Source: Thermofilum pendens Hrk 5 (GTDB lineage Archaea > Thermoproteota > Thermoprotei > Thermofilales > Thermofilaceae). Taken from it: a DNA stretch of 32,000 nucleotides. The translations under genes were made by a program, and so were the position numbers. Positions 8,756 through 32,000 of the stretch are shown piece by piece (position 1 is the stretch's first letter; every line of letters starts with the position of its first letter). The notes below the pieces were generated by a model. The model saw only the letters and a list, made by a program, of their open reading frames with translations. It was not told the DNA's origin and did not search any database. Location: assembly GCF_000015225.1 (NCBI RefSeq), contig NC_008698.1, positions 1,530,001 to 1,562,000 of the forward strand, in the 5' to 3' direction.

Positions 8756-8898
8756 GATTCACAAGCCGGTAAGGCTGGTTTAAAGGTTAACTCTTACCCC
8801 GCGACGGTTTTGCGGCGGTTGCCGAGGGAAAGATCAACTACCACCTTTAAGTAGTAGCGACGAAAAACTTAAATCTTTGCATCTTGGCTTATTTAGCG

Positions 8899-10257: not shown

Positions 10258-10271
10258 GCTAAAAAGGTCCA

Positions 10272-10285
10272 TTTTCTTTTTCTTT
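10272..10285 (+). terminator. Oligo-T tract after the binding-protein gene (possible attenuating archaeal terminator)
   Basis: TTTTCTTTTTCTTT lies 15 nt after the stop codon. Archaeal termination commonly uses T-runs. Confidence 0.35.
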
Positions 10286-10300
10286 CGTGGGGAGACCTGC

Positions 10301-11194
10301 ATGAAGAATGCTTCTACGAAAGACCTCTTGGTCTTCCTGGGGATTCCCCTCTCGGTAATCCTGGTGTTCGTGGTGTACCCGATAGTGGCGACCGTTGTTC
10401 TCAGCTTCACCGCTGACGGCGCGCTTTCCGCAAAGAACTACGTCGAAGTACTGACCGAGAGCATCCCGCTAAAAGCGCTACTCGTAGCTAACCCGGGGCC
10501 GTACCCGCCTTGGGGCGCCCTTGTGCACAACGCTCTCTGGATCGTGATAGCGGTTCCTGCGGTTGTATTCCTAGGGATGCTCCTCGCCTACACCCTCAGG
10601 GGTGTCCCGGGCTCCAGCTTTATCGCCGGCGCGATCTTCCTGGGGATGGTTCTACCGGGCGTTGTGAGCGGGCTGATAATCAGGTTTATGTTCGACGATA
10701 GCCTGGGGATTTTCCCCAGGATTTTCGGCGCGCTAGGCGTACCGCTACTCTCAAAGACGTGGACCATATACCCCCAGACGGCTCTGCTGGCGCTTATACT
10801 CGGCTCGGTGTGGCTATGGCTGGGCTTCAGCGTTACGCTTTACCTGGCAGGCCTCGACTCAATACCCTCGAGCATGGTCGAGGCAGCGCTCGTCGACGGG
10901 GCGTCCCAGTGGGAGATATTCACGAGAATAATCGTACCGCAACTAAAGCCGATAACCGTGGTGGTAACGCTGATGACCGTGATGTGGATCCTCAAGATAT
11001 TCGACATAGTGTACGTGGTCACCGGCGGGGGGCCCGGAGGCTCCTCCACAGTGTTAGCCCTGATAATGTACACGTACTTCGCGAGCTCCCTCGAGTACGG
11101 CAAGGCCGCCGCTGTTGCCGTGATCCTGGCGCTCCTCACGCTGGTGCCCGCGTACTGGTACATAAGGATGATTCTAAGCGGTGAGAAGAGATGA
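10301..11194 (+). CDS. Sugar ABC transporter permease (MalF/UgpA-like)
   Basis: 297-aa polytopic protein. EAA-loop region MVEAALVDGASQWEIFTRIIVPQLKP. Confidence 0.85.
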   Translation: MKNASTKDLLVFLGIPLSVILVFVVYPIVATVVLSFTADGALSAKNYVEVLTESIPLKALLVANPGPYPPWGALVHNALWIVIAVPAVVFLGMLLAYTLRGVPGSSFIAGAIFLGMVLPGVVSGLIIRFMFDDSLGIFPRIFGALGVPLLSKTWTIYPQTALLALILGSVWLWLGFSVTLYLAGLDSIPSSMVEAALVDGASQWEIFTRIIVPQLKPITVVVTLMTVMWILKIFDIVYVVTGGGPGGSSTVLALIMYTYFASSLEYGKAAAVAVILALLTLVPAYWYIRMILSGEKR

Positions 11195-12030
11195 GGCGCA
11201 GGCTTGCACCCTCAAGGGTAGCCGTAGCGGCGGCCCTCTGGGTCTTCACCGCGCTATGGCTCCTGCCCTTCGTAGCCCTAGTGGTTATGTCCGTGAAGCC
11301 GTACAAGGAGGTCGTCCTCAACGGCTGGTGGACGCTACAGGGAAACTACTCCCTCGAAAACTACGTCGAGGTACTCCTTAACCCATCCTTCAACTTCGTC
11401 AAGGGCCTTGAGAACTCGTTCGTAGTGGCCTCTCTGAGCACAGTGATACCCGTGGTCTTCGCGGCGATGATGGCATACTCCCTCACGTACCTCTCGTTTA
11501 GGTACAGAACTCTGCTCTTCGTCTCGATACTGGTCTTCATGTCCGTGCCCCAGCAAATGGTGGTCATACCGCTGTTCTCGCTCTACGTGAAGACAGGGCT
11601 ACACGACAAGCTTGCAGGCATAATACTCCTCCACAGCGCGTGGGGAACTCCGTGGATAGCGTTCTTCATGAGGAATTACTTCAGAATGCTACCGCAAAGC
11701 TTCGTCGAGGCAGCCAGGATAGACGGGGCATCGGAGTTCACGATCTTCTGGAAAATCCTCCTGCCGCTAAGCCTGCCCGCAGTCGTCGCGGCCTCCGCGA
11801 TACAGTTCACGTGGGTCTGGGGAGACTTCTTCTACGCGATGGTGTTCCTCCCGTCGCCATCAAACTACGTTGTCACACAACGCCTAGCGTTGCTAAAAGG
11901 CGAGTTCCACATAGACTGGGGCTTGCTGAGTGCCGGCGCTATACTGGCGATGCTACCCCCTCTACTGGTCTACGTCGCGTTCAAGAAGTACTACGTGAGG
12001 GGCTTCGCCGGGTGGGGCGTTAAAGGCTAG
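11191..12030 (+). CDS. Sugar ABC transporter permease (MalG/UgpE-like)
   Basis: 279 aa. EAA loop FVEAARIDGASEFTIFWKILLPLSLP. 4-nt ATGA overlap with the upstream permease. Confidence 0.85.
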   Translation: MRRRLAPSRVAVAAALWVFTALWLLPFVALVVMSVKPYKEVVLNGWWTLQGNYSLENYVEVLLNPSFNFVKGLENSFVVASLSTVIPVVFAAMMAYSLTYLSFRYRTLLFVSILVFMSVPQQMVVIPLFSLYVKTGLHDKLAGIILLHSAWGTPWIAFFMRNYFRMLPQSFVEAARIDGASEFTIFWKILLPLSLPAVVAASAIQFTWVWGDFFYAMVFLPSPSNYVVTQRLALLKGEFHIDWGLLSAGAILAMLPPLLVYVAFKKYYVRGFAGWGVKG

Positions 12031-12039
12031 CATTACGGC

Positions 12040-13080
12040 CTAAGGAGCCCGGGGCAGTACCTTCAGCCTGAAAACCCTGCCCTCGACGTCCTCCAGCCTA
12101 GCCCCCAGCCCGCCGACGGTGATTTTTCTCTGGCCCACCTCGAGCACGAGGGAGACGCGTACCCCCTGACCGTTCTCGGATATCTCCGCGGGTCTACCGG
12201 TAAGCGTCACGCTTCTCCCCGTCCTCCTCTCCACGCCCGCGACTGTAACCTCCGCGCCTAGCCCCCTGCCGAGGCACTCCTTTAAAACCTCGTTAAGCAA
12301 CCAGATAGACGTAGCCGTGTACTCGAAGCCCTCCACGGGCTCGAAGGGTTTCACCACGCTACTCACCCTCCACAGCGCGTGGTAGTAGAAGTCCAGGAAG
12401 GTCCTGATGAGATCCTCCTCCGCGATTTCAAGCGCGTAGGACTCCCTGAGGATCACCGCCCTGGCGGAGTCGGCTATGACGAGAGGGATTACACCCACGC
12501 TCCTCAACCTCAGGCCGAGCCACGGCTCCGCGGGGAGAGGCTCCTCCACGCCCTCGTAGTAGACAACCGCTACGAGCCTTCTAGCCGCGCCGCCCCCAAC
12601 ACTGTGCGGAAGGATCTCTCCCACCAGGCGCGGGGGGCCTGCTACCAGGGCATCGTAGGAAGCGTTTTCCAGCATCTTCCTCGCCCTGAGAATCGCCTCG
12701 GACTTGTTCTTAATGACCCTCACCCTGGGCGCCTGCACGTCCTCCGCCTGCAGGTAGACGCGGCTAAGCGCCTTCAAAGCTCTCTCCTTGTTGCTCTCGA
12801 TCCTCCGGCTCGCTAGTCCCGCCAAGATCTCTATGGCTCGGGAAGGCTCTATGGCTCTATACCGCTTCGGCTTCGAAAGGGCGACTTCCACGAGCCCCTT
12901 GCTCGCCAGCGATTCGAGAGTCTCGTAGACCCTGGGCTGGGGGACGCCGGTTAACGCTACGATCTCGTTCGCAGTCCTCTCCCTCCCGTCGGCGATGGCG
13001 AGGTATACCCTCGCCTCGTACGGCTTTAGCCCCAGCTCGACTAGGGCATTGTAGGCGTCCTCGAACTCCGGCTCCATCAC
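12040..13080 (-). CDS. trmB: TrmB family sugar-responsive transcriptional regulator
   Basis: N-terminal wHTH LKPYEARVYLAIADGRERTANEIVALTGVPQPRVYETLESLASKGLVEV is typical of TrmB. The 346-aa length fits the presence of a C-terminal sugar-binding domain. It lies between the sugar ABC genes and treT. Confidence 0.85.
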   Translation of the reverse strand: MMEPEFEDAYNALVELGLKPYEARVYLAIADGRERTANEIVALTGVPQPRVYETLESLASKGLVEVALSKPKRYRAIEPSRAIEILAGLASRRIESNKERALKALSRVYLQAEDVQAPRVRVIKNKSEAILRARKMLENASYDALVAGPPRLVGEILPHSVGGGAARRLVAVVYYEGVEEPLPAEPWLGLRLRSVGVIPLVIADSARAVILRESYALEIAEEDLIRTFLDFYYHALWRVSSVVKPFEPVEGFEYTATSIWLLNEVLKECLGRGLGAEVTVAGVERRTGRSVTLTGRPAEISENGQGVRVSLVLEVGQRKITVGGLGARLEDVEGRVFRLKVLPRAP

Positions 13081-13098
13081 GACGCTAATAACCGGATA

Positions 13099-13112
13099 GA
13101 AAAAAATATTTC
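13099..13112. promoter_or_regulatory. Shared AT-rich near-palindromic TATA-like element in the 54-bp trmB/treT divergent intergenic region
   Basis: GAAAAAAATATTTC is centred about 25 nt from the trmB start (13080) and about 30 nt from the treT GTG (13135). Confidence 0.45.
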
Positions 13113-13134
13113 TGAACGCAACTACTACTTTTCG

Positions 13135-14379
13135 GTGGTAACTATCAAAGCCACCCCGAGGTACTCCAGGAGAATCGAGGACTACGTGCCCGCCGTGGGT
13201 AGGGAGGATATCGAGGAGCTCGTAAGGGTCGCCAAGAGGTTAAAGGGGGTAAGCGTAGTACACGTGAACTCGACGGCTTACGGCGGAGGAGTCGCCGAGA
13301 TTCTTCACAGCATGGTCCCGGTGATGAGTTCTCTCGGGATCGACGCCAGGTGGGAGGTTCTGGAAGCCGAGGACGAGTTCTTCCAGGTCACGAAGAAGAT
13401 TCACAACGGGCTTCAGGGTAACCCTTCGCTCGTACTCACGGACGAGGACTGGAGAACCTACCTGAAGTGGAACCAGTATAACGCGGAGATCCTCGACCTC
13501 GACGCTGACGTGGTACTCGTGCACGACCCCCAGCCCATGGCGCTACCTATGTTCAAGCGCGGTGCCAGGGGTGTCTGGGTCTGGAGGTGCCACATAGACA
13601 TCTCTTCCCCGAATGCATCCTTCTGGGAAAAGCTCTCCCCCTTCCTCGGGTACTACAGGGGGGTGATAGTACACAGCGAGGAGTACGTTAAAAAGGAGTT
13701 CGAGGACAGAGTCCTGGTATCCCCGCCTAGCATAGATCCTCTCAGCGACAAGAACAGGGAGCTCGGCGAAAAAGAGGTGGAGAGCGTGTTTAAACGCTTC
13801 GGAGTAGACCCCGAAAGACCCGTTATCACCAAGGTTGCCCGCTTCGACCCTTGGAAGGACGTCTTCAGCGCGGTCGACGTCTTTAGAGAAGTGAAGAAGG
13901 AGGTCCCCGGCGCCCAGCTACTCCTCGTGTCCTCCATGGCGAGGGACGACCCAGAGGGCGCGGTTTTCTACGAGAAGGTACTCGGCTACGTTAAGGGCGA
14001 AGAGGGTGTACACATACTGACAGACGCTATCGGTGTCAGGGACTTGGAGGTGAACGCCTTCCAGAGGGGAACCACCGTGGGACTTCACACCGCTATCCGC
14101 GAGGGCTTCGGTCTTGCGGTCACCGAGATGCTATGGAAAAAAGTACCCGTGGTGGCGAGGCCTGTTGGAGGCGTCAAGAAACAAGTGGTAGACGGGGTGA
14201 CGGGATTCACGGCTTGGAGCGTCCAGGAGCTGGCAGAGAGAGTTAAGGCCTTGCTGGCGGACAACCAGCTTAGAGGGAGGTTGGGCGAGGCGGGGCGCGA
14301 GCACGTGAGGAGGAACTTCGTCATTACGCAACACGTGAAGAGGTATCTATCCTTCTTCGGCGAGCTACTGGGAAAATAG
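13135..14379 (+). CDS. treT: Trehalose glycosyltransferring synthase TreT (GT4)
   Basis: Matches Pyrococcus/Thermococcus TreT, as I remember those sequences, over nearly the full length. Examples: VHVNSTAYGGGVAEILHS, LVHDPQP, WRCHIDISSPN, PPSIDPLSDKN, ARFDPWKD, REGFGLAVTE, RNFVITQHVKRYL. Confidence 0.9.
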   Translation: MVTIKATPRYSRRIEDYVPAVGREDIEELVRVAKRLKGVSVVHVNSTAYGGGVAEILHSMVPVMSSLGIDARWEVLEAEDEFFQVTKKIHNGLQGNPSLVLTDEDWRTYLKWNQYNAEILDLDADVVLVHDPQPMALPMFKRGARGVWVWRCHIDISSPNASFWEKLSPFLGYYRGVIVHSEEYVKKEFEDRVLVSPPSIDPLSDKNRELGEKEVESVFKRFGVDPERPVITKVARFDPWKDVFSAVDVFREVKKEVPGAQLLLVSSMARDDPEGAVFYEKVLGYVKGEEGVHILTDAIGVRDLEVNAFQRGTTVGLHTAIREGFGLAVTEMLWKKVPVVARPVGGVKKQVVDGVTGFTAWSVQELAERVKALLADNQLRGRLGEAGREHVRRNFVITQHVKRYLSFFGELLGK

Positions 14380-17661: not shown

Positions 17662-18249
17662 CTACTCTGGGCAACGCTCCCGGTTTGCCTGCGCCTCTCT
17701 TCTCAGGGTTCTCGCTACCTCCTCCACGACCTTGTAGTGAAAGTCTTCTTGAGATGCTATGCTCCTCATAAGTAACGATGCTAGACCCTTGCACTCCTCA
17801 GCTATGAGCACTGAGTACAGCTTGCTGTAGATCTCCTCCCCCGCCACCTTCTCCACGGAGTTGAACCTTTCCAGTAGCGACGCGACCTCCTCGAGAGAGA
17901 CTTCCACCCCGGATGAAAGCCTCTCAGCTACCTGGAGCATTTCCTCTACCATCCTGAAGCCTTCCTCTCCAAAGAAGCGCCTGCAATCTTCCGCGCCCGC
18001 GGGCTTCCCGAAGAAAGCTACGATAATCTCGTAGTGGTTTTTGCTTTCTAAGCCCACAACCTCGAGGGCTTTAGACAACCTGGGGTCCTTCACCTTCCGC
18101 GCTAACGCTGTGTAGAACTTGCAAGCGGCTTCTTCGAGGATGGCCAAGCATTCGGGCTTGAACCCTTCGATCACGGTTAATTCAACGATAGCCCATCTTA
18201 TATAGTATTTTGCGAAAAGCTTAAATAACCCAAAGAGAGGTATCAGCAC
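17662..18249 (-). CDS. Ferritin-like/rubrerythrin-fold four-helix-bundle protein (tentative); true start probably GTG 18174
   Basis: Two-fold helical pattern: EEAACKFYTALA ... LESKNHYE and GEEIYSKLY ... SQEDFHYK, the latter with ExxH. The first 25 codons of the ORF are encoded by promoter-like AT-rich DNA. That DNA includes CTATATAAG (minus strand, 18197-18205), 27 nt upstream of in-frame GTG 18174. Confidence 0.4.
   Translation of the reverse strand: MLIPLFGLFKLFAKYYIRWAIVELTVIEGFKPECLAILEEAACKFYTALARKVKDPRLSKALEVVGLESKNHYEIIVAFFGKPAGAEDCRRFFGEEGFRMVEEMLQVAERLSSGVEVSLEEVASLLERFNSVEKVAGEEIYSKLYSVLIAEECKGLASLLMRSIASQEDFHYKVVEEVARTLRREAQANRERCPE
18197..18227. promoter_or_regulatory. Back-to-back divergent TATA-like boxes
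   Basis: CTATATAAG on the minus strand would serve the ferritin-like gene. CTTAAATAA on the plus strand (18219-18227) would serve the transporter gene. The transporter ATG 18268 is preceded by GAGGTG at 18255-18260. Confidence 0.4.
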
Positions 18250-24211: not shown

Positions 24212-24769
24212 ATGAAGCTCCACGAAATAACAAGAGACTTGCTTCTAAGCGCCTTCGGCGGAGAGTCAATGGCGCACATGAGGTACCTGGTGTTCGCCGA
24301 GATAGCCGATAGAGAAGGTTTCCCAAACGTCGCTAGACTCTTCAGAGCAATAGCCTACGCCGAGTTCGTGCACGCGAAAAACCACTACGGGAACCTCGGC
24401 GACTACAAGGAGGCTTTCCCCGTGTACGCCGGCACCCCAGCGGGGCCTGGAACTACCTCCAAGAACCTCGAACTAGCCATAATGGGCGAGGAATACGAGG
24501 TTAACGAGATGTACCCAGCCTACATCGAGGTCGCCAGGTTCCAGGGCGAGAAGGGGGCCGAGAGGAGCTTCCGCTGGGCCCTCGAAGCGGAGAAGATCCA
24601 CGCGAAGCTATACAGGGAGGCTAAAGCCAGCGTAGACCAAGGAAAGGACTGGCCGATAGACGGGAAAGTCTGGGTATGCCCCGTATGCGGGCACACGTAC
24701 GTTGGACCAGAGCCGCCCGAGAAGTGCCCGATCTGCGGAGCCCCGAGAGAGAAATACCAGGGGTTCTGA
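24212..24769 (+). CDS. rbr: Rubrerythrin
   Basis: Diiron four-helix bundle motifs (GESMAHMRY, AEFVHAKNH, EEYEVNEMY, EAEKIHAKLY) plus a C-terminal rubredoxin-like CPVCG...CPICG. Confidence 0.9.
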   Translation: MKLHEITRDLLLSAFGGESMAHMRYLVFAEIADREGFPNVARLFRAIAYAEFVHAKNHYGNLGDYKEAFPVYAGTPAGPGTTSKNLELAIMGEEYEVNEMYPAYIEVARFQGEKGAERSFRWALEAEKIHAKLYREAKASVDQGKDWPIDGKVWVCPVCGHTYVGPEPPEKCPICGAPREKYQGF

Positions 24770-24790: not shown

Positions 24791-24843
24791 CCCCTCTGGG
24801 CGGGCTCGAAAGATTTTAGAACCTTTAGCGTTGTTTGACGCCT

Positions 24844-25134
24844 ATGCCTTTAAAGAAAGCCACACTCAAGGTCTCCGGGATAGGGTGCGGTAGCTGCGTG
24901 GCTCCAAGCAAGGCACACCTGCTCCGAGTACCCGGCGTAGTAGCCGTATACGTGTTCGGCTCGCGCGTAGAGGTCGTATACGACGAGGAGAGAACGAGCC
25001 TAGACGAAGTACTGAAGTCTAGCGGGGTTAACGAGTACTACTTCGTACAGGTACTCTCCGTAGAGAGCGTAGACGACTCGCTGGGAGCCTCGGGGAGGAG
25101 CGAGAAGACCGAGACCCTCCGCCTAAACCTGTAG
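24844..25134 (+). CDS. Heavy-metal-associated (HMA) domain metallochaperone-like protein
   Basis: ATLKVSGIGCGSCV matches the GMxCxxC metal-binding motif within a ferredoxin-like HMA layout. ATG 24844 is preferred over TTG 24835. Confidence 0.7.
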   Translation: MPLKKATLKVSGIGCGSCVAPSKAHLLRVPGVVAVYVFGSRVEVVYDEERTSLDEVLKSSGVNEYYFVQVLSVESVDDSLGASGRSEKTETLRLNL

Positions 25135-25462: not shown

Positions 25463-25858
25463 TCAGCCCAGCGGTATTCTCCGCAAGCCTGGCACCCTAT
25501 CGAAAGCCCTGTCATCCGAGACAATAACGCCGTCTACGGCTAGCGCCGAGGCTGCTATCATGCTGTCGAAATAGCTCAGCCCGTACTTTTCCTCCAACTC
25601 TGCCTGCCTAACAAACAACTCCGTGCCAATCGTAGAAACCTCTCTAACCCTGTAGCTTTTGAAAACGTGTTTCAAGGCATTCATCGCAGCGGCTATCTCG
25701 CCGGGCTTCCTGCCTCTTGCCCGCAACACGACCTGGAATTCTAGCAGAGCGGTATCGGGGACCTTCAACCCCTTCATAGACAGCAACCTTAAAGCCCTCC
25801 CATGTCTCGGGTCGCCGGGGCTCAAAGCGAAAAGAAACTCCGTATCAACGACAGGCAT
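25463..25858 (-). CDS. vapC: PIN-domain toxin VapC
   Basis: 131 aa. Acidic residues sit at the PIN positions (VVDTEF..., YFDSMIAASA, IVSDDRAFD). Overlaps the upstream antitoxin gene by 14 nt. Confidence 0.85.
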   Translation of the reverse strand: MPVVDTEFLFALSPGDPRHGRALRLLSMKGLKVPDTALLEFQVVLRARGRKPGEIAAAMNALKHVFKSYRVREVSTIGTELFVRQAELEEKYGLSYFDSMIAASALAVDGVIVSDDRAFDRVPGLRRIPLG

Positions 25859-26084
25859 TCCTCAACCACTCTTCCGCCTTTCTTTCGTCCCTCTCTTCCC
25901 TGTAAGGTTCCCCGATAACCTCTGCGAGAACTTTGAACGGATTGAAATCTTTACGCTCAAGGACTATCCTACCCCCCTCCACCCTAACCTCCAGTAGATC
26001 CCCCTCTTTTAGGCCGACCTTCTCCCTCACGCTCTTTGGGATAACCACTGTGAACCTCTTCCCAACTCTAACAGATTCCGACAT
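25845..26084 (-). CDS. vapB: AbrB/SpoVT-type antitoxin VapB
   Basis: 79 aa. RFTVVIPKSVREKVGLKEGDLLEVRVEGGRIVLE is the SpoVT/AbrB swapped-hairpin motif. Confidence 0.85.
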   Translation of the reverse strand: MSESVRVGKRFTVVIPKSVREKVGLKEGDLLEVRVEGGRIVLERKDFNPFKVLAEVIGEPYREERDERKAEEWLRNACR

Positions 26085-26124: not shown

Positions 26125-26222
26125 ATTCTGAAAACCCCGCATCAGATGATCCCAGCCCCCTAAACCTGGGCACGCGAAGACCGAGGGGTGAGTGCACTCA
26201 TCCAAGTTATGTGCTTCGCGCG

Positions 26223-27989
26223 CTAAGCGCTGTGAGACTCCTGGGGCACGGTTACTTGGGCGGGTTCGAGTATCGGGCCGAGCTTCTCCCTGACAGCCTT
26301 CCTGACGGCCTCGGGGTCCGCGGAGCCCTCCACCGATACAACGGGGACTTCGAACTTGAGGGGGTCTGGCCTCGCGTAGACCCTGACCCCTCTCACCCCG
26401 GGGACCCCCGCGACCACCCTTTCTATAGCGCCGGGGCTCACCCTGTACCCGCTGACCTTCATCACGCCGTCCCTCCTGCCGAGCACCTCGATGTAGCCGT
26501 CAACCGAGTAGCGGGCGGCGTCGCCCGTGTCGTAGAAACCTTCCCGCCACTTCTCCCAGAAGTCGCCCGGCGCCTCCACGGGGATGGCGGGCCAAGGCTT
26601 CCTGACCACGAGCCTCCCGTCCTCCAGGACCTCGACGTGGAAGCCTGGCATCGGCGGGCCGCAGGTACCGGGGACTATGTGGGTAAACGTGTAGCTCGGG
26701 AGGTTGCCGACGAGGAACGTCCCCACCTCGCTCTGTATGTAGAGGTCCAGCACGGGTATAGCTCCCGAGAGCTCCGAGGGGACGGAGTCCACGAGGGGCC
26801 TCTTGAGGGTTCCCAGCACGCTGTAAGCCCAGCCCCACGTCTCGGCGTCGAGGGGCTCCGCCGTTACCAGCACTGCCTTCAGGGAGTCGTAGTCGTGGCT
26901 CCGGAAAAGCTCCGCCGGTTGCCTCGACATGAGCCTGAGGGCACCCGAGGTCGTCAGGAGCAGCGTGACACCGTAGCTCTCGACGATGCTTATCCACCTG
27001 TCCCAGCCCCTCCAGTCCGGCGCGCCGTCGTAGAGAACGACAGTGGAGCCCGTCATCAGGGGGCCGAAGACGAGGTAGGAGACACCGGTTATCCAGCCCG
27101 GCCAGACTGTGTTGAAGAGAGTCTCGCGGGGCTTGAGGCCTATCCACCTAGACGTCGCGTAGACCTGTACGAGGAAGCCCGCAGCCGGGTAGGACAGCGG
27201 CTTGAAGTCGTCCCTGTAGGCCGAGTGGAGGCCGAAGAGGGGCTCCGAGGAGCCGAGGACGGCGCTACCGCTGTAGGCGCCCGAGGAGAGAGCTTCATCG
27301 AGCGTGTAGACGCCGGGCGCCGCCGGGACCTTCCTTCCCAGCCTCTCCGAGACGAGCAGGACGGGCTTAGCCCCCGATTCCTCGACCGCCCTGAGCACGC
27401 TTCCAAGCGTGTCCACCTCCCTCCCCCTGCGGGTGTAGCCGTCCACAGTGAATACAACCCTGGAGCCCCTCCTCGCTATGCGCTTCGCCAGCTCGTAGTA
27501 GCCGAAGCCCGTGAAGACGGGCTCGAAGGGGGCGCCCACCCTCATCGCCGCCAGCATGAATGCCAGCGACTCGGGGTTCGGCGGCGAGTAGACAGTGACC
27601 CAGTCCCCCCTCCCCACCCCGACGCTTTCGAGCCAGCCGGCTATCCTCCCCGCCAGCGCGTCGAGCCCCTCGTACGTCAGAACCTCGGCGTCCCCGCTCT
27701 CCGACTCGTAGAGGACGGCGACCTTCCTCCAGACAGGGGTGCCCCTGTGCCTCGAGACAACGTTCTCGTAGGGGCTCAGCTCGCCGCCCGCGAACCACCT
27801 AACCCTGGGAGCCTCGCCCTCCACGACCCTCTCCCAGGGCTTCCTCCACAGCAACAGGCGCGCGTAGGAGGACCAGAATCCGTAGACGTCCTCCACGCTC
27901 TCCCGATACACCCTCCTGTACTCCGCGAGCGTCATCACCTTGAACCTAGCCGACGGCGGTACAACCCTCCTAGCCTGCTCCGGCACCAC
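26223..27989 (-). CDS. Acetyl-CoA synthetase-like (ANL superfamily) protein with degenerate adenylation motifs
   Basis: Collinear with Acs along its length: WF.GG.L, VY.P..PE...AMLA..R.GA, GWITG.SY...GPL..G.T, YDTGD, GRRDG..KVSGYR. The P-loop LYTSGSTGKPKG is replaced by LHSAYRDDFKPLS. The protein ends before the PKTRSGK lysine motif. GTG start preceded by GGAGGC. Confidence 0.8.
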   Translation of the reverse strand: MVPEQARRVVPPSARFKVMTLAEYRRVYRESVEDVYGFWSSYARLLLWRKPWERVVEGEAPRVRWFAGGELSPYENVVSRHRGTPVWRKVAVLYESESGDAEVLTYEGLDALAGRIAGWLESVGVGRGDWVTVYSPPNPESLAFMLAAMRVGAPFEPVFTGFGYYELAKRIARRGSRVVFTVDGYTRRGREVDTLGSVLRAVEESGAKPVLLVSERLGRKVPAAPGVYTLDEALSSGAYSGSAVLGSSEPLFGLHSAYRDDFKPLSYPAAGFLVQVYATSRWIGLKPRETLFNTVWPGWITGVSYLVFGPLMTGSTVVLYDGAPDWRGWDRWISIVESYGVTLLLTTSGALRLMSRQPAELFRSHDYDSLKAVLVTAEPLDAETWGWAYSVLGTLKRPLVDSVPSELSGAIPVLDLYIQSEVGTFLVGNLPSYTFTHIVPGTCGPPMPGFHVEVLEDGRLVVRKPWPAIPVEAPGDFWEKWREGFYDTGDAARYSVDGYIEVLGRRDGVMKVSGYRVSPGAIERVVAGVPGVRGVRVYARPDPLKFEVPVVSVEGSADPEAVRKAVREKLGPILEPAQVTVPQESHSA

Positions 27990-27995
27990 GCCTCC

Positions 27996-28541
27996 TCACC
28001 TCCTCCCCGGTACGACTACCTGCGTGTAAACGAGTGAGAGGTCGCGGAACCTGTACAGCCACCTCTCGGGCCCCGCCCTCAGGGGGACCGCTACCCTAGG
28101 CCTCACCGTCCTCACGACCTCGGATGCCTCCTCGGGCGTCATGGCCCCCTCGCCGAGGGGTAGGAGGGCGACGTCGATATCCTCGCCCCTGAGGCCTACT
28201 ATCTCCTCGACTAGCCCCGTCGGGCCGGCATAGTAGACCTTGACCCCGCCTAGGTAGAACACGTAGCCGACGCCTCCCCCTTGCTCCGCGCGCCTGTAGC
28301 CGCTGACGACCCTAACCCTGAAGCCCTCCAGCTCCAGGGCGTCTCCAGGCTTCACGACGCGTCCCCCGCAGGGGGAGTAGAAATCGCCGCCGATGCCTTG
28401 TGGCTCGTAGCCGCAGCGGGTGTAGAAGAGGTACGCGTAGCCTCCGCCCGCGTTGACGCCTATGGATTTCCCGCCGAAGAGTATCCCGACGGAGACCCCC
28501 TCCCCAAGTAGCAGCGTTACCTCGCCGAGCTTAAGCCTCAT
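27996..28541 (-). CDS. Metallo-beta-lactamase-fold-like protein lacking all metal ligands (tentative fold call)
   Basis: The C-terminal half resembles COG2220-type MBL proteins (VGYVFYLGGVKVYYAGPTG...DIDVALLPLGEGAMTPEEASEVVRTVRPRVAVPL). There is no HxHxDH motif and the 181-aa sequence contains no histidine. ATG preceded by GGTG. Confidence 0.4.
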   Translation of the reverse strand: MRLKLGEVTLLLGEGVSVGILFGGKSIGVNAGGGYAYLFYTRCGYEPQGIGGDFYSPCGGRVVKPGDALELEGFRVRVVSGYRRAEQGGGVGYVFYLGGVKVYYAGPTGLVEEIVGLRGEDIDVALLPLGEGAMTPEEASEVVRTVRPRVAVPLRAGPERWLYRFRDLSLVYTQVVVPGRR

Positions 28542-28550
28542 AGCTACACC

Positions 28551-29612
28551 TCAGCATATCCTGGGGACAATGACCCCTCTAGGTGGCTCGATAATCCTGT
28601 GCCCGCCGACCCCCGTCTCGGAGACGACAAAGCCCCTGTACTTGGGGTTCTCGCGGAACTCCCCGATAACCCTCGCGTTCGGGAAACCCCTCCCCCTGAG
28701 CTCGGAGACTACTTCCTCGGCTACCTCGGGGGAGACCGAGAGGACCGCTGCGCCTTCGCTCGCGAGGTAGAGGGGGTCTACGCCGAGCATCTCCGCGAAC
28801 CTCCTGACGGCGTCCCGCACCGGCACCTCCTCCTCCCTGATGACAGCCAGGAGCCCGCCGCTCCTAGCCCACTCGTTCAGAACACCCGCGAGCCCCCCGC
28901 GGGTCGGGTCCCTCGCCGCGTGGATGTACCCGGCGAACTTCTCGAAGACAGGTAGTAGCGGCGTCAGGGGCTTCGAGTCGCTCTTCAGAGAACCGCTCGC
29001 TATCTCCTCGACGTCCCCCATCCCCATCTGGAGCATCAGGATGACCGCGCCGTGGTCCCCGACGTAGTCCGTGACGACTATCTTGTCGCCGCCCCTCGGC
29101 TTGTCGACTATGGGGCTACGCGCAACCCCCAGCCCCACCGTGGTCACAGTTATCCTGTCGAGCTGGCCCTTCGGCATGACCTTGAAGTCCCCGCCTATCA
29201 GCGGCACACCTTCCTTTTCGAGCGCCTCGAGCATAGAGTTGACGATGGCCTCCAGGTCGCCCATCGGGAAGCCCTCCTCGACCACTATAGTGTCGAGCAT
29301 GGCGACAGGCCTCCCGCCCATCATCACGACGTCGTTTATCGATCCGTGAACCGCGAGGCTACCTATGTTCCCGCCCGGGAAGAACGGAGGGTTCACGGTG
29401 TAAGAGTCCGCCGTGACGACGAGGAAGCCCCCGCCGGGCAGGGGTATGAGCGCGCCGTCGTCCGGGAAATCTATCCCGACGCCCCCCTCCACCCTCTTGA
29501 GGTGCTCCTTCACCCTCCTGAAGAAGAGCTCCTCGAGGAGCCTGAGGGTCTCCACGCCCCCCTGGCCGTCCGCTAGCTCTACGACCCCCTTGCCACCCGG
29601 GATACGCCTCAC
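28551..29612 (-). CDS. hypE: [NiFe]-hydrogenase maturation protein HypE
   Basis: PurM-like fold motifs. The C-terminus VIVPRIC ends in the conserved PR(I/V)C cysteine that is carbamoylated and cyanated. GTGA overlap with the hypC stop. Confidence 0.9.
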   Translation of the reverse strand: MRRIPGGKGVVELADGQGGVETLRLLEELFFRRVKEHLKRVEGGVGIDFPDDGALIPLPGGGFLVVTADSYTVNPPFFPGGNIGSLAVHGSINDVVMMGGRPVAMLDTIVVEEGFPMGDLEAIVNSMLEALEKEGVPLIGGDFKVMPKGQLDRITVTTVGLGVARSPIVDKPRGGDKIVVTDYVGDHGAVILMLQMGMGDVEEIASGSLKSDSKPLTPLLPVFEKFAGYIHAARDPTRGGLAGVLNEWARSGGLLAVIREEEVPVRDAVRRFAEMLGVDPLYLASEGAAVLSVSPEVAEEVVSELRGRGFPNARVIGEFRENPKYRGFVVSETGVGGHRIIEPPRGVIVPRIC

Positions 29613-29908
29613 CCCTCCCGCTTCAGCTTCTCCGCGAGCGCCAGCACGTTCTCCCTGAGCGCGGTCAGCGCGTCCTCGGCCTCGCCCGCCTCCTGGAGTA
29701 TCCCCCTGAGGAACTCTATCTCCTCCCTGAGCCCCTCGGGCGAGATCTTGGAGATAATGACGCCCGCGTGGACAACCACGATGTCCCCCCTGGAGACCCT
29801 GTCCCCGGCTATGCCGACGAAGACCTCCCTGACAACCCCGTCCCCGTAGTCCACCCTAGCAGTGGAGCCCGAAACCTCCAGCACGACGGCCGGAGTCCCC
29901 CAGCACAC
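29609..29908 (-). CDS. hypC: [NiFe]-hydrogenase maturation chaperone HypC
   Basis: The N-terminal MC(W)G..A.V motif carries the essential Cys2. Small OB-fold-sized protein (99 aa) with VVVHAGVIIS. Confidence 0.85.
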   Translation of the reverse strand: MCWGTPAVVLEVSGSTARVDYGDGVVREVFVGIAGDRVSRGDIVVVHAGVIISKISPEGLREEIEFLRGILQEAGEAEDALTALRENVLALAEKLKREG

Positions 29909-29974
29909 CGCGTACCACCACTAAAGCTAGGCGCGCGCCGCTTAAAAACCGTGCTTGTAGTATTTTTACATACG

Positions 29975-31210
29975 CTATCCCAGCCCGGCTTCCAGCGCTA
30001 GGTCTCGAGCTATCTGGTCCGCCAGCCCTCCCCCTCCGAACCTAGCCCAGACGGCGCACGTCCCCTCGAGGGAAACCATGCAGGGCCCGTACGGCTTCTC
30101 GGGGGTACACTTCTTCATGAACATGGGGCAGTCCGTGGGCTTAGCCTTCCCGAGCGTCACCTCGGCGCACCTACAGCCGGGAGGAGTGTCCTTCCGCCAC
30201 TTCTCGGGCGTCAGCTCCTCGATCCCGAAGTGCCTCAAGGCGTCCAGGCGCCCGTACTTCTCCCTGAGCCTAAGCCCGCTGAGCGGCAGGAACCCTATCC
30301 CCCTCCACGCGTCGTCCACAGCTTCAAACGCCTCGTGTATAGCCGCCTGCGCCTCCAGGTCCCCCTCCCACGTCACCGCCCGCGTATACTCCACTTTGAC
30401 CCCGTACTCCCCCCTCGCCAGTTGCCGCATGATCTCCGCGATACCCATGAGCACGTCTATAGGCTCGAACCCCGACACGACCACGGGCACCTGGAACTGC
30501 TCCGCGACGGGCTCCCACGCCTTCGCCCCGGTAACCGTCGACACGTGGCCCGGCGCTATCACCCCCATGACAGGCGGCTCCGTGGGCTTGTCGCGCAGGA
30601 TGTCCAAGGAGTAGAACATGGCTGGAGGCGTGAGCTTAACGAGGCTCATGAGCTTGAGGTTCTCCGGGAGGCTCCCCGAGACGACCGCGCGGGCGTAGCC
30701 GGGGGCAACGGTCTCGAAGCCTATACCGAGAAAGACCGACTCGCCCCCATGCCTAGAGGCGTCCCTCACGGCGTCCACTAAGCTCACCACGAGCCTCACC
30801 CTACCCCCCGCCGCCCTAGCCTCCTCGAGGGACGAGACGCCGTCCACGGGGTTCACCGCGCGGAGCTTGAAGGTATCCCCGTACGTGTAAACGGTCACCC
30901 CGCTCAGGGAGAGCTCTATAGCCCTCTCGATGTACCAGGAAGGAGTGACGCAGACAGGGCACCCGGGCCCAGCCACCAGCTCGACCCCCTCCGGCATGAG
31001 GCTCCTAAGCCCGAAGTGCACGATAGTCCACTCGTGAGTCCCGCAGAAGTCCATGATCTTGATCCTGTAGTCCCGCCCCTCCCTAGCCCTTATCTCCTCG
31101 AACTTCCTGGCAATATACCCCCTAAGCGCCCCGGCAAGCCTAGCGTTAGACCTGAAAGCCTTCTCCAAGTAGCCAAGCTTCTCCAGAAAAGCGAGCCCCT
31201 GACCCTCCAT
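29975..31210 (-). CDS. hypD: [NiFe]-hydrogenase maturation protein HypD
   Basis: IMDFCGTHEW, GPGCPVCVTP, GFETVAP, APGHVSTVTG and the C-terminal Cys cluster CPMFMKKC...C...C match HypD motifs. Confidence 0.9.
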   Translation of the reverse strand: MEGQGLAFLEKLGYLEKAFRSNARLAGALRGYIARKFEEIRAREGRDYRIKIMDFCGTHEWTIVHFGLRSLMPEGVELVAGPGCPVCVTPSWYIERAIELSLSGVTVYTYGDTFKLRAVNPVDGVSSLEEARAAGGRVRLVVSLVDAVRDASRHGGESVFLGIGFETVAPGYARAVVSGSLPENLKLMSLVKLTPPAMFYSLDILRDKPTEPPVMGVIAPGHVSTVTGAKAWEPVAEQFQVPVVVSGFEPIDVLMGIAEIMRQLARGEYGVKVEYTRAVTWEGDLEAQAAIHEAFEAVDDAWRGIGFLPLSGLRLREKYGRLDALRHFGIEELTPEKWRKDTPPGCRCAEVTLGKAKPTDCPMFMKKCTPEKPYGPCMVSLEGTCAVWARFGGGGLADQIARDLALEAGLG

Positions 31211-31294
31211 ATGTTGGAAAACCCGATTCTGATAGTTAAATCCTTAACCTAATGTGAAAGTCGAAAAAGTAGCGCTACGAGGCAAGTTGCTAGT

Positions 31295-32000
31295 TCAGAA
31301 AAAATCTTTAAGTAGGCTTTTTCTAAACTCGTGGAATTCTCTACTATACTCCTTCAATGCTTGATAAAACTTAAAGTATAAGTAAAAGTATTTCGAATAA
31401 AATTCGACATTTTGTGCAAGGGGTTCGGCACCACCATCTAAAATTTCATCTTTCAATGCTAATGCTTCTCTGTATCCGATTCTGTTCTGAGCCAAAGAGT
31501 AGTGAATCCATCCTCCCACTAGTGTAGGCTCTACGTGCTCCCTTACCACATAGAGAGGCATTCCGAACACGTCAGAGAATATTTGCCTCCAAGTACCTAT
31601 CCGTAGTCCTCCCCCTCCCCCATGAGTAAGGAGAGGGTTAAGTCCGTGTTCTTTCAAGGCTTCTAGAATCATTTTCAGCGTGAAAGCAACTCCTTCCATT
31701 ATTGCCCTAAGCATATCGTTACGCGTTGTAGATAGAGATGCGCCGTAAAATGCACCCCTGAAGTATGGGTCTCGTATCGGGAATCTTTCTCCAGTTAAGT
31801 AAGGTAAAAATACTAGGCCATTAGCTCCGGGCGGCGAGAGCCTAGTCTCTATGTCTAGCAAAGTGAACCTATCAATGTTTGCAGTCTCGGATACAATCTC
31901 CTCTGCAGTAGCAAAGTTTCTTAGAAACCACTCCACGGCTACCCCCGCGTTGTTCACGGCCCCGCCTACTATCCACCGTGAATTACCGGCATAGTACGAG
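31295..32000 (-). CDS. FGGY-family carbohydrate kinase, C-terminal domain (5' end outside window)
   Basis: FLPYLTGERFPIRDPYFRGAFYGASLSTTRNDMLRAIMEGVAF and HGGGGGLR...WRQIFSDVFGMPL match the FGGY_C domain. The frame stays open to position 32000 (…GGAVNNAGVAVEWF). Confidence 0.8.
   Translation of the reverse strand, partial: SYYAGNSRWIVGGAVNNAGVAVEWFLRNFATAEEIVSETANIDRFTLLDIETRLSPPGANGLVFLPYLTGERFPIRDPYFRGAFYGASLSTTRNDMLRAIMEGVAFTLKMILEALKEHGLNPLLTHGGGGGLRIGTWRQIFSDVFGMPLYVVREHVEPTLVGGWIHYSLAQNRIGYREALALKDEILDGGAEPLAQNVEFYSKYFYLYFKFYQALKEYSREFHEFRKSLLKDFF

Follow-up and report, generated by a model that had tools for sequence, protein, structure and literature searches.

An MBL-fold protein and an acetyl-CoA-synthetase-like protein as a probable accessory part of [NiFe]-hydrogenase assembly in Thermoproteota

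Why does a hyp operon of the archaeon Thermofilum pendens continue, beyond its hydrogenase maturation genes, into a gene for an MBL-fold protein and another resembling acetyl-CoA synthetase (ACS)? We addressed this question in a window of 32,000 nucleotides from T. pendens Hrk 5 (NC_008698.1, positions 1,530,001 to 1,562,000), within which the features of interest are numbered from its first letter (Table 1). We read the stretch as the distal part of a hypD-hypC-hypE operon carrying these two further genes, here called MBLL and ACSL. The gene order and junctions given in the preliminary description match the ORF table and the sequence to the base: hypC and hypE share 4 nt (GTGA), 9 nt (GGTGTAGCT) lie between hypE and MBLL, and 6 nt (GGAGGC) lie between MBLL and ACSL, with a full Shine-Dalgarno (SD)-like element, GGAGGTGA, straddling the MBLL stop codon. 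Given this spacing and these SD-like elements, co-transcription and translational coupling of the unit are plausible. At its upstream end a gap of 84 nt precedes hypD, with a TATA-like TTTAACTA roughly 30 nt upstream of the ATG; downstream it is bounded by a gap of 138 nt, where a TATA-like TTATATA precedes a vapB/vapC pair. The earlier suggestion that hypC-hypE-MBLL-ACSL may be a unit apart from hypD is without comparative support, hypD being contiguous with hypC in most other genomes.

Table 1. Features of the T. pendens hyp unit (positions within the window)
Feature	Positions	Strand	Evidence	Remark
hypD	29975-31210	minus	Pfam HypD 1.5e-121; TIGR00075 338 bits vs cutoff 193	[4Fe-4S] scaffold protein, first gene of unit
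hypD-hypC spacer, 66 nt	29909-29974	minus	sequence read: AAAAATAC, T5 run/TTTTTAAG, GGTGG SD-like element	
hypC	29609-29908	minus	Pfam HupF_HypC 1.9e-17; N-terminal Met-Cys (MC...)	Fe-binding chaperone
hypE	28551-29612	minus	TIGR02124 325 bits vs cutoff 252; AIRS + AIRS_C; C-terminal PRIC	ATP-dependent carbamoyl dehydratase
MBLL	27996-28541	minus	Lactamase_B_3 4.4e-11, above gathering score	MBL-fold protein, 181 aa, hyp-linked subfamily
Former HxHxxH metal motif in MBLL	28401-28430	minus	subfamily alignment, motif counts	T. pendens LFYTRCGYEP; relatives LYTHxHPRHxP
MBLL C-terminal signature RFRDLSLVYTQVVV	28011-28052	minus	family consensus KFRDxAQPYTQVV	
ACSL	26223-27989	minus	Pfam ACAS_N + AMP-binding + AMP-binding_C	588 aa, non-canonical ANL superfamily member
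Replacement of A3 P-loop in ACSL: LFGLHSAYRDDFKPLSY	27189-27239	minus	family PLFGLHSGYxDDFKPITH vs LYTSGSTGKPKGVxH	
Retained A7 (YDTGD) + A8/hinge (GRRDGVMKVSGYRV) in ACSL	26439-26534	minus	family conservation	
Truncated ACSL C-terminus GPILEPAQVTVPQESHSA	26226-26279	minus	A10 PKTRSGK region absent in T. pendens	

Linkage of the pair to hyp was examined from both sides. Starting from ACSL, we found MBLL directly adjoining it inside a hyp cluster in 15 of 17 informative orthologue loci, the named taxa with this configuration being Desulfurococcaceae, Acidilobaceae, a Sulfolobales MAG, Infirmifilum, a Pyrobaculum MAG and a Methanomethylicia MAG. In the reverse direction, the C-terminal signature pattern of MBLL alone retrieved 32 metagenome loci, and wherever a flank is available each of these has ACSL, hyp genes or hydrogenase genes. 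Clustering of MBLL at below 80% identity across all loci gave 28 lineages, every one of them hyp-linked and 26 with ACSL adjacent; in lineages L035 and L036 ACSL is absent from the surrounding 1.4-1.7 kb. ACSL stands alone in Thermoproteus tenax, and in Pyrobaculum neutrophilum some 7 kb separate it from hypF-hypC-hypD and there is no MBLL. This neighbourhood check on orthologues had been set beforehand, and non-linkage to hyp is clearly not what was found; the linkage thus supports the proposal that the MBL-like and ACS-like genes belong functionally with hyp. A search of the literature for an association of the pair with hyp operons returned no published description, in line with the earlier view of the pair as a candidate for an undescribed system.

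The linkage persists through at least five gene orders around the pair. Besides hypD-C-E-MBLL-ACSL, these include hypF-hypE-MBLL facing a convergent ACSL that is followed by hypA-hypB, nikR-hypA-hypB-ACSL-hypE-MBLL (L045, L050 and L053), and hypF-MBLL-ACSL-hypD-hypC at locus L015, where hypF is directly upstream of the pair with overlapping reading frames; locus L044 has two MBLL copies. In almost every arrangement MBLL is immediately 3' of hypE, even with ACSL elsewhere or absent (L026, L028, L035, L036, L045, L050, L053), and at L030, L050 and L053 the module adjoins nikR-hypA-hypB. Group-1-like and group-3-like hydrogenases occur beside the pair, one type of neighbour being a 492-aa HoxH-type large subunit with FlpD and another a 638-aa large subunit with NiFe_hyd_SSU_C. 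A genuine ACS is also present about 1 kb from hypC at L015. That enzyme, together with the ACSLs outside hyp operons in T. tenax and P. neutrophilum, could be taken to mean that the pair are chance neighbours of hyp, namely a standard acyl-CoA synthetase and an intermediary-metabolism hydrolase. We regard this as highly improbable and close to refuted, given the linkage in both directions across these gene orders and several Thermoproteota orders, and given that ACSL falls below the ACS equivalog thresholds and is without the adenylation motifs.

Within the ANL superfamily ACSL is closest to AMP-forming acetyl-CoA synthetase, with which it shares the two-domain fold and the ACAS_N N-terminal extension, but the NCBIfam acetate-CoA ligase models score it at 327 and 321 bits where the cutoffs are 657 and 725, less than half of the equivalog cutoff, and its context is hyp rather than acetate metabolism. 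We recovered 79 orthologues, and every one with a named source is from Thermoproteota. Across the family 146 columns reach a conservation of 90% or more, 107 of them common to real ACS and 39 family-specific; as judged from these sequences, purifying selection acts on ACSL, which is not decaying. At the A3 P-loop T. pendens has HSAYRDDFKP where TSGSTGKPKG is expected, and the replacement motif (FGLHSGYxDDFKPITH), which is acidic and aromatic in character, is conserved family-wide. The A10 lysine, K609, is not conserved across the family. In contrast, ACSL retains the A5 (QSE), A7 (TGD) and A8/hinge motifs of ACS: all of 76 family members have the equivalents of D500, R515 and D517 and 75 have that of G524, while the arginines R191, R526 and R584 are found in 75, 76 and 74 members, respectively. 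In ACS these arginines serve the CoA phosphates and the locking of the thioester-forming conformation, and W414 determines acyl specificity (PMC10455477). The latter position is Ile in 73 of the 76 members, and the pocket changes as a whole comprise V310I, V386T, G387A and W414I. The AF2 model of ACSL (pLDDT 94.6) superimposes on ACS structures with TM 0.88-0.91, best on CoA-bound ones, as against TM 0.77 for 7kno_B and 5u29_B, which are taken to be in the other domain arrangement; the modelled conformation is a weak hint, being biased by PDB content. The label "motif-degenerate" given to this gene at first holds in so far as A3 is altered and the T. pendens protein ends before A10, but the conserved replacement motif and the extent of column conservation show that ACSL is a specialised protein and not a degenerate one. 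Since every AMP-ribose residue, the hinge and the three arginines that contact CoA and the adenylate phosphate in the thioester-forming state are kept while the P-loop and A10 are replaced, ACSL probably binds an adenylate and CoA but would be unable to adenylate with ATP.

MBLL shares its fold and Pfam family with the UPF0173 / Lactamase_B_3 hydrolases: its AF2 model (pLDDT 77) matches TM1162, 3KL7 and Igni18 in Foldseek at probability 1.0, and the C-terminal half, including the GDT and PEEA region, aligns well with them. The subfamily is, however, about 20-40 aa shorter, has HxHxRH in place of HxHxDH and two extra conserved cysteines, and ends in a unique KFRDxAQPYTQVV, whose Y172 and Q174 never vary and whose T173 is nearly invariant. 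Nearly all members have HxHxxH, HxGD and PxH motifs besides the two cysteines, and this modified His-rich site is probably catalytic or metal-binding in most lineages. The T. pendens MBLL, with 0 His in 181 aa and both family cysteines missing, is the sole copy of this kind among about 50 examined by motif counts. Its initial characterization as histidine-free is literally correct for this copy but does not extend to the family. With all putative ligands gone it is not a metalloenzyme, at least in T. pendens, and so its only possible role would be that of a structural partner, unless it is on its way out.

The His/Cys site of most members might indicate that MBLL is a metal chaperone or store giving Ni or Fe to the Hyp machinery, with ACSL as an accessory; TM1162, its closest solved relative, was crystallised with nickel, and the loci with nikR-hypA-hypB would fit such a role. 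We consider this improbable, given that the commonest position of MBLL is after hypE, in the Fe-ligand branch, rather than after hypA/hypB, that the gene persists after loss of the ligands in T. pendens and in a few other lineages, and that it leaves no role for a CoA/adenylate-binding protein. A further alternative is that the module works in relatives while in T. pendens MBLL, and perhaps the short-tailed ACSL, are non-functional relics. Extensive gene loss is a known feature of T. pendens, its MBLL is somewhat faster-evolving in addition to lacking the ligands (about 41% identity to relatives as against about 47% among them), and the tail of its ACSL is among the shortest C-termini of the family. 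Nevertheless, both ORFs are intact and tightly coupled with SD-like elements, the invariant PEEA and YTQ signatures of MBLL are present and the MBL fold is still predicted, ACSL has essentially all family-conserved residues without accelerated evolution, and short ACSL tails also occur beside intact MBLL (L002, L003, L038 and L041). Decay in T. pendens is accordingly also a poor prospect in our estimation.

That MBLL and ACSL participate in maturation appears quite likely. [quoted passage not shown] ACSL is an ACS paralogue in which the ATP/pyrophosphate machinery (P-loop and A10 lysine) has been replaced and the acetate pocket remodelled. Its ligands are probably either an adenylate together with CoA or else an acyl-CoA. 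We suggest tentatively that it performs the thioester half-reaction or its reversal only; ATP-driven activation of acetate is probably beyond it. Together with its partner MBLL it would make, hold or process a small acyl (C1-type) thioester or adenylate, which would feed the Fe(CN)2CO-building branch of HypC/D/E/F. The CO ligand would be the most plausible product of such a step, but a role of the pair in CO supply is itself doubtful. The predicted effect of W414I is a larger acyl pocket, not a smaller one, against the naive expectation for formate or another C1 substrate. According to a 2025 review, where the CO comes from under anaerobic conditions is "the most pressing" question still open; the review considers formyl-CoA as a possible precursor of unknown source, and notes that E. 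coli matures [NiFe]-hydrogenase anaerobically with six Hyp proteins alone.

Among known systems, HypX is likewise an extra, lineage-restricted gene of hyp clusters and acts via a CoA thioester, just as ACSL brings a complete CoA-binding site into such clusters; it is the aerobic CO-ligand synthase, in which formyl-CoA is decarbonylated to CO (2025 review). There is no homology between the two, HypX being a fusion of a formyltransferase and an enoyl-CoA-hydratase-like domain and the pair combining an ANL fold with an MBL fold. Moreover, HypX belongs to aerobes and uses N10-formyl-THF, whereas the organisms with the pair are mostly anaerobic hyperthermophiles, and CO formation by the pair is a proposal.

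A known source of an acyl-adenylate in the pathway is HypF, which forms such an intermediate and transfers one carbon unit onto a thiol. Like ACSL it is hyp-encoded and handles an acyl-adenylate (a prediction in the case of ACSL), but its fold is unrelated, with acylphosphatase, Zn finger, YrdC and Kae1-like domains, while ACSL is without adenylate-making motifs. The pair could, then, assist HypF/HypE in the cyanide branch, with ACSL for instance binding the HypF-made carbamoyl-adenylate or shielding thermolabile carbamoyl intermediates, and MBLL docking on HypE. Such a role would be consistent with the near-constant position of MBLL after hypE irrespective of ACSL, the overlap of the pair with hypF at L015, the retention in ACSL of adenylate-binding but not adenylate-forming residues, and the fact that the organisms involved are all (hyper)thermophiles. 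It nonetheless seems unlikely to us: HypE and HypF look canonical, with the PRIC terminus present and a full HypF domain set in relatives; the invariant CoA-binding arginines of ACSL have no evident role in carbamoyl transfer to HypE; and the hyperthermophilic Thermococcus matures [NiFe]-hydrogenase with Hyp proteins alone and is not known to need such a helper.

As regards the accessory module that we favour, given that for E. coli, and for Thermococcus too, the six Hyp proteins suffice, whatever the pair does would be lineage-specific or auxiliary. MBLL and ACSL, whose genes occur within hyp clusters in many hot-spring archaea, probably form an accessory component, not described before, of the machinery that assembles [NiFe]-hydrogenase.

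Five consecutive minus-strand ORFs within 26223-31210 were recognized from the ORF table together with Pfam and NCBIfam scans, namely hypD, hypC, hypE and, 3' of hypE, two genes for an MBL-fold protein (hereinafter MBLL) and an acetyl-CoA-synthetase-like protein (hereinafter ACSL). The last four are tightly packed: hypC and hypE overlap by GTGA, MBLL is preceded by the 9-nt spacer GGTGTAGCT and ACSL by the 6-nt spacer GGAGGC, and the MBLL stop codon lies within a full GGAGGTGA element. This gene set and its junctions are exactly those of the preliminary description, which had read hypC, hypE, a histidine-free MBL-like gene and a motif-degenerate ACS-like gene as a single tight unit. The 66-nt hypD-hypC spacer holds AAAAATAC and TTTTTAAG, and a TATA-like box lies in the 84-nt gap upstream of hypD. 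On the 3' side of ACSL a gap of 138 nt with TTATATA is followed by an unrelated vapB/vapC pair; a PIN/RHH pair also comes just after the hyp module in L050, a locus from a relative. Elsewhere within the window we found no hypA, hypB, hypF or hydrogenase subunit genes, and the window contains no tRNAs and no Rfam matches at the gathering threshold. A 608-aa plus-strand ORF antisense to ACSL (26211-28037), with much Arg, Pro and Gly, was discarded; we read it as a shadow of the GC-rich coding strand and not as a gene. The FGGY-like ORF at the window edge may represent a fragment of a gene or inserted foreign DNA, and the sugar transporter cluster has the known trehalose/maltose-type arrangement. 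A 994-nt contig from an independent sequencing run (Logan contig SRR9438660_291, locus L051) is 100% identical to window positions 27693-28686 and runs from the 3' end of hypE through the complete MBLL gene into the 5' end of ACSL; should the run prove to be a transcriptome, the contig would show co-transcription across the hypE/MBLL and MBLL/ACSL junctions.

Coordinates of the features discussed, on the window or on the named locus of a relative (L-handles)
Feature	Sequence	Position	Strand	Remarks
hypD	window	29975-31210	minus	Pfam 1.5e-121
hypC	window	29609-29908	minus	N-terminus MCWGTP
hypE	window	28551-29612	minus	TIGR02124 325 bits against a cutoff of 252; C-terminal PRIC
MBLL	window	27996-28541	minus	MBL-fold protein, 181 aa
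ACSL	window	26223-27989	minus	588 aa; ACAS_N, AMP-binding and AMP-binding_C domains
vapB-like/PIN toxin-antitoxin pair	window	25463-26084	minus	MazE/AbrB-type antitoxin (79 aa) and PIN-domain protein (131 aa) directly downstream of ACSL; reading frames overlap; own TATA-like box
FGGY-like ORF	window	31295-31957	minus	220 aa; match to C-terminal half only of FGGY sugar kinases
Low-GC segment	window	31001-32000		GC down to 0.47 from ~0.6-0.66; contains the FGGY-like ORF
Sugar transporter cluster	window	8884-14379		TrmB-family regulator between sugar ABC transporter (binding protein and two permeases) and TreT-type trehalose synthase
Rubrerythrin-family gene	window	17662-18249
Rubrerythrin-family gene	window	24212-24769		C-terminal rubredoxin-like domain
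Small ORF	window	24835-25134		GxGCxSC motif; resembles heavy-metal-associated domain (by motif only)
MBLL paralogues	L044	2320-2835 and 8001-8498		one upstream of hypF, the other after hypE
NikR-type regulator	L030	8600-9016
NikR-type regulator	L050	5444-5836
NikR-type regulator	L053	6399-6797
Genuine ACS	L015	14461-16464		667 aa, full-length; all three Pfam domains

The ACSL family comprises 79 members at E < 1e-60, among which all those with a named source belong to Thermoproteota (Thermofilaceae, Desulfurococcaceae, Acidilobaceae, a Sulfolobales MAG, Thermoproteus, Pyrobaculum and one Methanomethylicia MAG). A contig scan with the single ACSL protein recovered 8 close loci, and the taxonomic breadth of the loci came from exact-sequence contig look-ups. 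At 15 of the 17 informative ACSL loci MBLL is the immediate neighbor of the gene and both lie inside a hyp cluster. The two exceptions are Thermoproteus tenax, where ACSL stands alone, and Pyrobaculum neutrophilum, where it lies ~7 kb from hypF-hypC-hypD without MBLL; the 159-aa ORF that follows the P. neutrophilum gene gave no tblastn match to MBLL. In the reverse test a pattern built only from the C-terminal signature of the MBLL subfamily retrieved 32 metagenome loci, all of which, wherever the contig reaches far enough, contain hyp genes, hydrogenase genes or ACSL. De-replication of the MBLL loci at 80% MBLL identity left 28 distinct lineages, every one of them hyp-linked and 26 with an adjacent ACSL; in L035 and L036 a hypE-MBLL arrangement has no ACSL within the following 1.4-1.7 kb. 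Thus, the linkage of MBLL and ACSL orthologues to hyp genes in other genomes, on which the preliminary description had made its proposal depend, is borne out from both sides; both families are kept in hyp clusters, with MBLL staying closest to hypE.

The module occurs in at least five gene orders: hypD-hypC-hypE-MBLL-ACSL; hypF-hypE-MBLL facing a convergent ACSL, then hypA-hypB; hypF-MBLL-ACSL-hypD-hypC in a Pyrobaculum MAG (L015); nikR-hypA-hypB-ACSL-hypE-MBLL; and an order with a second MBLL copy upstream of hypF (L044). The neighboring hydrogenases also differ in kind, one being a 492-aa HoxH-type large subunit with FlpD and another a 638-aa large subunit with a NiFe_hyd_SSU_C small subunit. 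Linkage that survives rearrangement and extends across several orders classically marks two genes as functionally associated; that it arose by chance or hitch-hiking is very unlikely, and chance by itself is essentially excluded. Several of these loci have further peculiarities. The hypE-adjacent MBLL copy of L044 has few histidines. In three closely related metagenome loci (L043, L046 and L047) the MBLL frame is split into two tblastn segments, which could reflect a frameshift, a pseudogene or an assembly error. The Pyrobaculum cluster of L015 contains, ~1 kb downstream of hypC, a genuine ACS in addition to ACSL, and this may bear on the origin of the ACSL paralogue.

By profile and by structure ACSL has the two-domain ANL fold, a large N-domain followed by a small C-domain (Pfam AMP-binding 1e-34, AMP-binding_C 2.2e-07), with the AMP-forming acetyl-CoA synthetases as its nearest relatives. 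It scores below half of the cutoffs of the corresponding equivalog and subfamily models (TIGR02188 and NF001208; 321 bits against 725 and 327 bits against 657), and is not a member of the ACS equivalog. Its AF2 model (pLDDT 94.6) superimposes on ACS structures with TM 0.88-0.91, and agrees far better with CoA-bound ACS entries than with 7kno_B and 5u29_B (TM 0.77, rmsd ~9.5 Å), which we assume to represent the other domain arrangement; because PDB content biases the model, little weight can be put on this conformation. An alignment of 76 family members with E. coli Acs and the genuine Pyrobaculum ACS has 146 columns conserved at 90% or more, 107 of them common to the real ACS and 39 family-specific, a pattern indicative of strong constraint on ACSL. 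The A3 P-loop of ANL enzymes, (T/S)SG(T/S)TGxPKG, binds the beta and gamma phosphates of ATP. It is absent from the T. pendens protein, which has HSAYRDDFKP there instead; in every family member TSGSTGKPKG is swapped for PLFGLH(S/P)(G/A)Yx(D/E)(D/G)(F/Y)KP(I/V)TH, so that a basic glycine-rich loop has become an acidic, aromatic one. Nor is the A10 lysine (PKTxSGK; K609 in Acs numbering, used throughout) conserved among the 76 homologues, having been replaced by E in 19, a gap in 12 and A in 8, with K in 7. The A10 region is altogether absent in T. pendens, as the protein ends 12 residues after GPILEP. The A5 QSE, A7 TGD and A8/hinge GRRDGVMKVSGYR motifs are present in T. pendens, and across the family the equivalents of E417, D500, R515, the hinge D517 and R526 are invariant, with G524 kept in 75 of 76. 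ACSL therefore lacks two defining ANL motifs, A3 and A10, and keeps the fold and the remaining ones.

The CoA-binding arginines are similarly retained: R191 in 75/76, R526 in 76/76 and R584 in 74/76, of which R191 and R584 contact the CoA phosphates, and R526 contacts the adenylate phosphate and locks the thioester-forming conformation (PMC10455477). The acetate pocket V310/T311/V386/W414 reads I/T/T/I family-wide, with T311 unchanged, and the neighboring G387 is replaced by a conserved A; it is W414 that restricts Acs to acetate (PMC10455477). By these columns, ACSL has lost the ATP/pyrophosphate machinery and has kept the full set of residues predicted to bind an adenylate and CoA. Activation of a carboxylate with ATP is probably beyond the protein. 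A specialized 'half-enzyme', binding AMP or acyl-AMP together with CoA, or else an acyl-CoA, is a serious possibility that stops somewhat short of being probable. The C-terminal tails vary: many Desulfurococcaceae-type proteins carry a conserved cysteine motif (e.g. LEECS, LEKCSDE, PSCSKE, YCNPT; noted at L004, L007, L008, L022-L024, L029, L033, L037, L039 and L040), those of the Thermoproteales/Acidilobales type have a degenerate A10-like LPxxPK(R)xLRxxLK instead, and the T. pendens protein has neither. We rejected the idea that this tail works in the MBLL site, with joint loss of tail and metal ligands, as the ACSL proteins of L002, L003, L038 and L041 are short-tailed and accompanied by an intact MBLL.

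MBLL belongs to the Lactamase_B_3/UPF0173 branch of the MBL superfamily (PF13483, 43.5 bits against a cutoff of 24), and its profile matches 3KL7 and TM1162 at 1e-33 to 1e-30. The AF2 model, of moderate confidence (pLDDT 77), has the alpha-beta/beta-alpha MBL fold and retrieves TM1162, 3KL7, a cAMP-binding MBL protein, TM0207 and Igni18 (Foldseek probability 1.0, TMq 0.6-0.74). A word-indexed homologue search with the T. pendens protein found only itself, and a profile query of the indexed database 9 proteins; the subfamily was recovered through an exhaustive representative search, which gave 588 relatives at E <= 0.001, and the metagenome scan used a narrower subfamily alignment. The top-scoring matches, which alone cover most of the query length, form a small distinct subfamily of ~170-206 aa, shorter than canonical members, and unified by invariant PEEA and YTQ elements and the C-terminal signature KFRDxAQPYTQVV. 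Most of its members have an altered metal site, YTHxHP(R/K/G)H followed by YHxGDT and PxH, in which the Asp of HxHxDH is replaced (HxHx(R/K/G/N)H), and two extra conserved cysteines (in CID and GC). Outside T. pendens MBLL is thus probably a metal-dependent enzyme or a metal-binding protein, and a role as a nickel or iron chaperone is a rival reading of low probability. The Ni-bound structure of TM1162 speaks for such a role, as does the nikR neighborhood of the module; NikR-type nickel-responsive regulator genes lie in or beside it in several lineages (table).

The T. pendens protein departs from this picture, having no histidine and neither family cysteine, and lacking HxHxDH as well as the downstream His/Asp ligands. 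It is the only such case among ~50 copies; the database members P0087, P0089, P0101, P0102 and P0106 are partly degenerate. The earlier label of a histidine-free MBL-like protein is hence accurate for this copy but does not extend to the subfamily, most of which keeps the His and Cys motifs. The T. pendens MBLL is also somewhat more diverged, at ~41% identity to relatives against ~47% among the relatives, and HypE and ACSL of T. pendens are not accelerated. Its closest relative (43% identity), from the nikR-hypA-hypB-ACSL-hypE-MBLL cluster of L050, keeps all motifs; the histidine-free state is hence a recent, local loss. This leaves two options for MBLL in T. pendens, a structural partner or a gene on the wane; local decay there is a rival reading of low probability.

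Taken together, the conserved linkage makes it likely that MBLL and ACSL are accessory factors of [NiFe]-hydrogenase maturation. As six Hyp proteins suffice in E. coli (2025 review of [NiFe]-hydrogenase maturation), the role of the pair must be lineage-specific. Against any such role stand the two Thermoproteaceae isolates in which ACSL is unlinked and has no neighboring MBLL, and the ligand-less state of MBLL in T. pendens itself. As to the step involved, help to the HypF/HypE cyanide branch is a rival of low probability, favored by the constant position of MBLL after hypE and by the hypF-MBLL-ACSL order in the Pyrobaculum MAG. The same review describes the anaerobic source of the CO ligand of the NiFe(CN)2CO cofactor as the most pressing question of the field, and names formyl-CoA, a CoA thioester whose source is not known, as an attractive candidate CO precursor. 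HypF/HypE are the enzymes of the cyanide branch and HypA/HypB those of nickel insertion, which leaves the CO source as the step to be assigned. The most economical hypothesis is therefore that the pair supplies the assembly of Fe(CN)2CO on HypCD through a small acyl thioester or adenylate, which it would make, hold or process. In the boldest version, ACSL, lacking ATP chemistry of its own, would form or hold on CoA a C1 acyl thioester or adenylate, and the pair would release CO to the iron on HypCD. Against a C1 role, the Trp414 to Ile change widens the ACSL pocket rather than narrowing it. We regard a role in the CO ligand as unlikely, and find slightly less probable again the boldest version, in which the two proteins are the dedicated anaerobic CO-ligand enzymes of one archaeal phylum, an oxygen-independent and non-homologous counterpart of HypX. 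HypX combines an N10-formyl-THF transferase domain with an enoyl-CoA hydratase-like decarbonylase domain, neither of which has a Pfam or NCBIfam match in ACSL or MBLL; any likeness would be one of chemistry (a CoA thioester) and not of ancestry.

A full-text literature search, whose incomplete coverage leaves a prior mention possible, found no ANL-type or MBL-type gene tied to hyp clusters, and the 2025 maturation review contains none; the pair is likewise missing from the published genome descriptions of T. tenax and Staphylothermus and from the Ignicoccus proteome study. We classify the system as the Hyp machinery extended by two phylum-restricted components, of which one is an unusual ANL derivative. 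Selection has kept two uncharacterized protein families inside hyp clusters through repeated rearrangement, and one of them, ACSL, has a complete predicted CoA- and adenylate-binding site without the ATP-activating machinery. Should the pair turn out to serve the cyanide branch or metal supply instead, it would still extend the canonical six-protein Hyp model for a whole phylum, and ACSL would also document the repurposing of an ANL enzyme to half of its reaction cycle.
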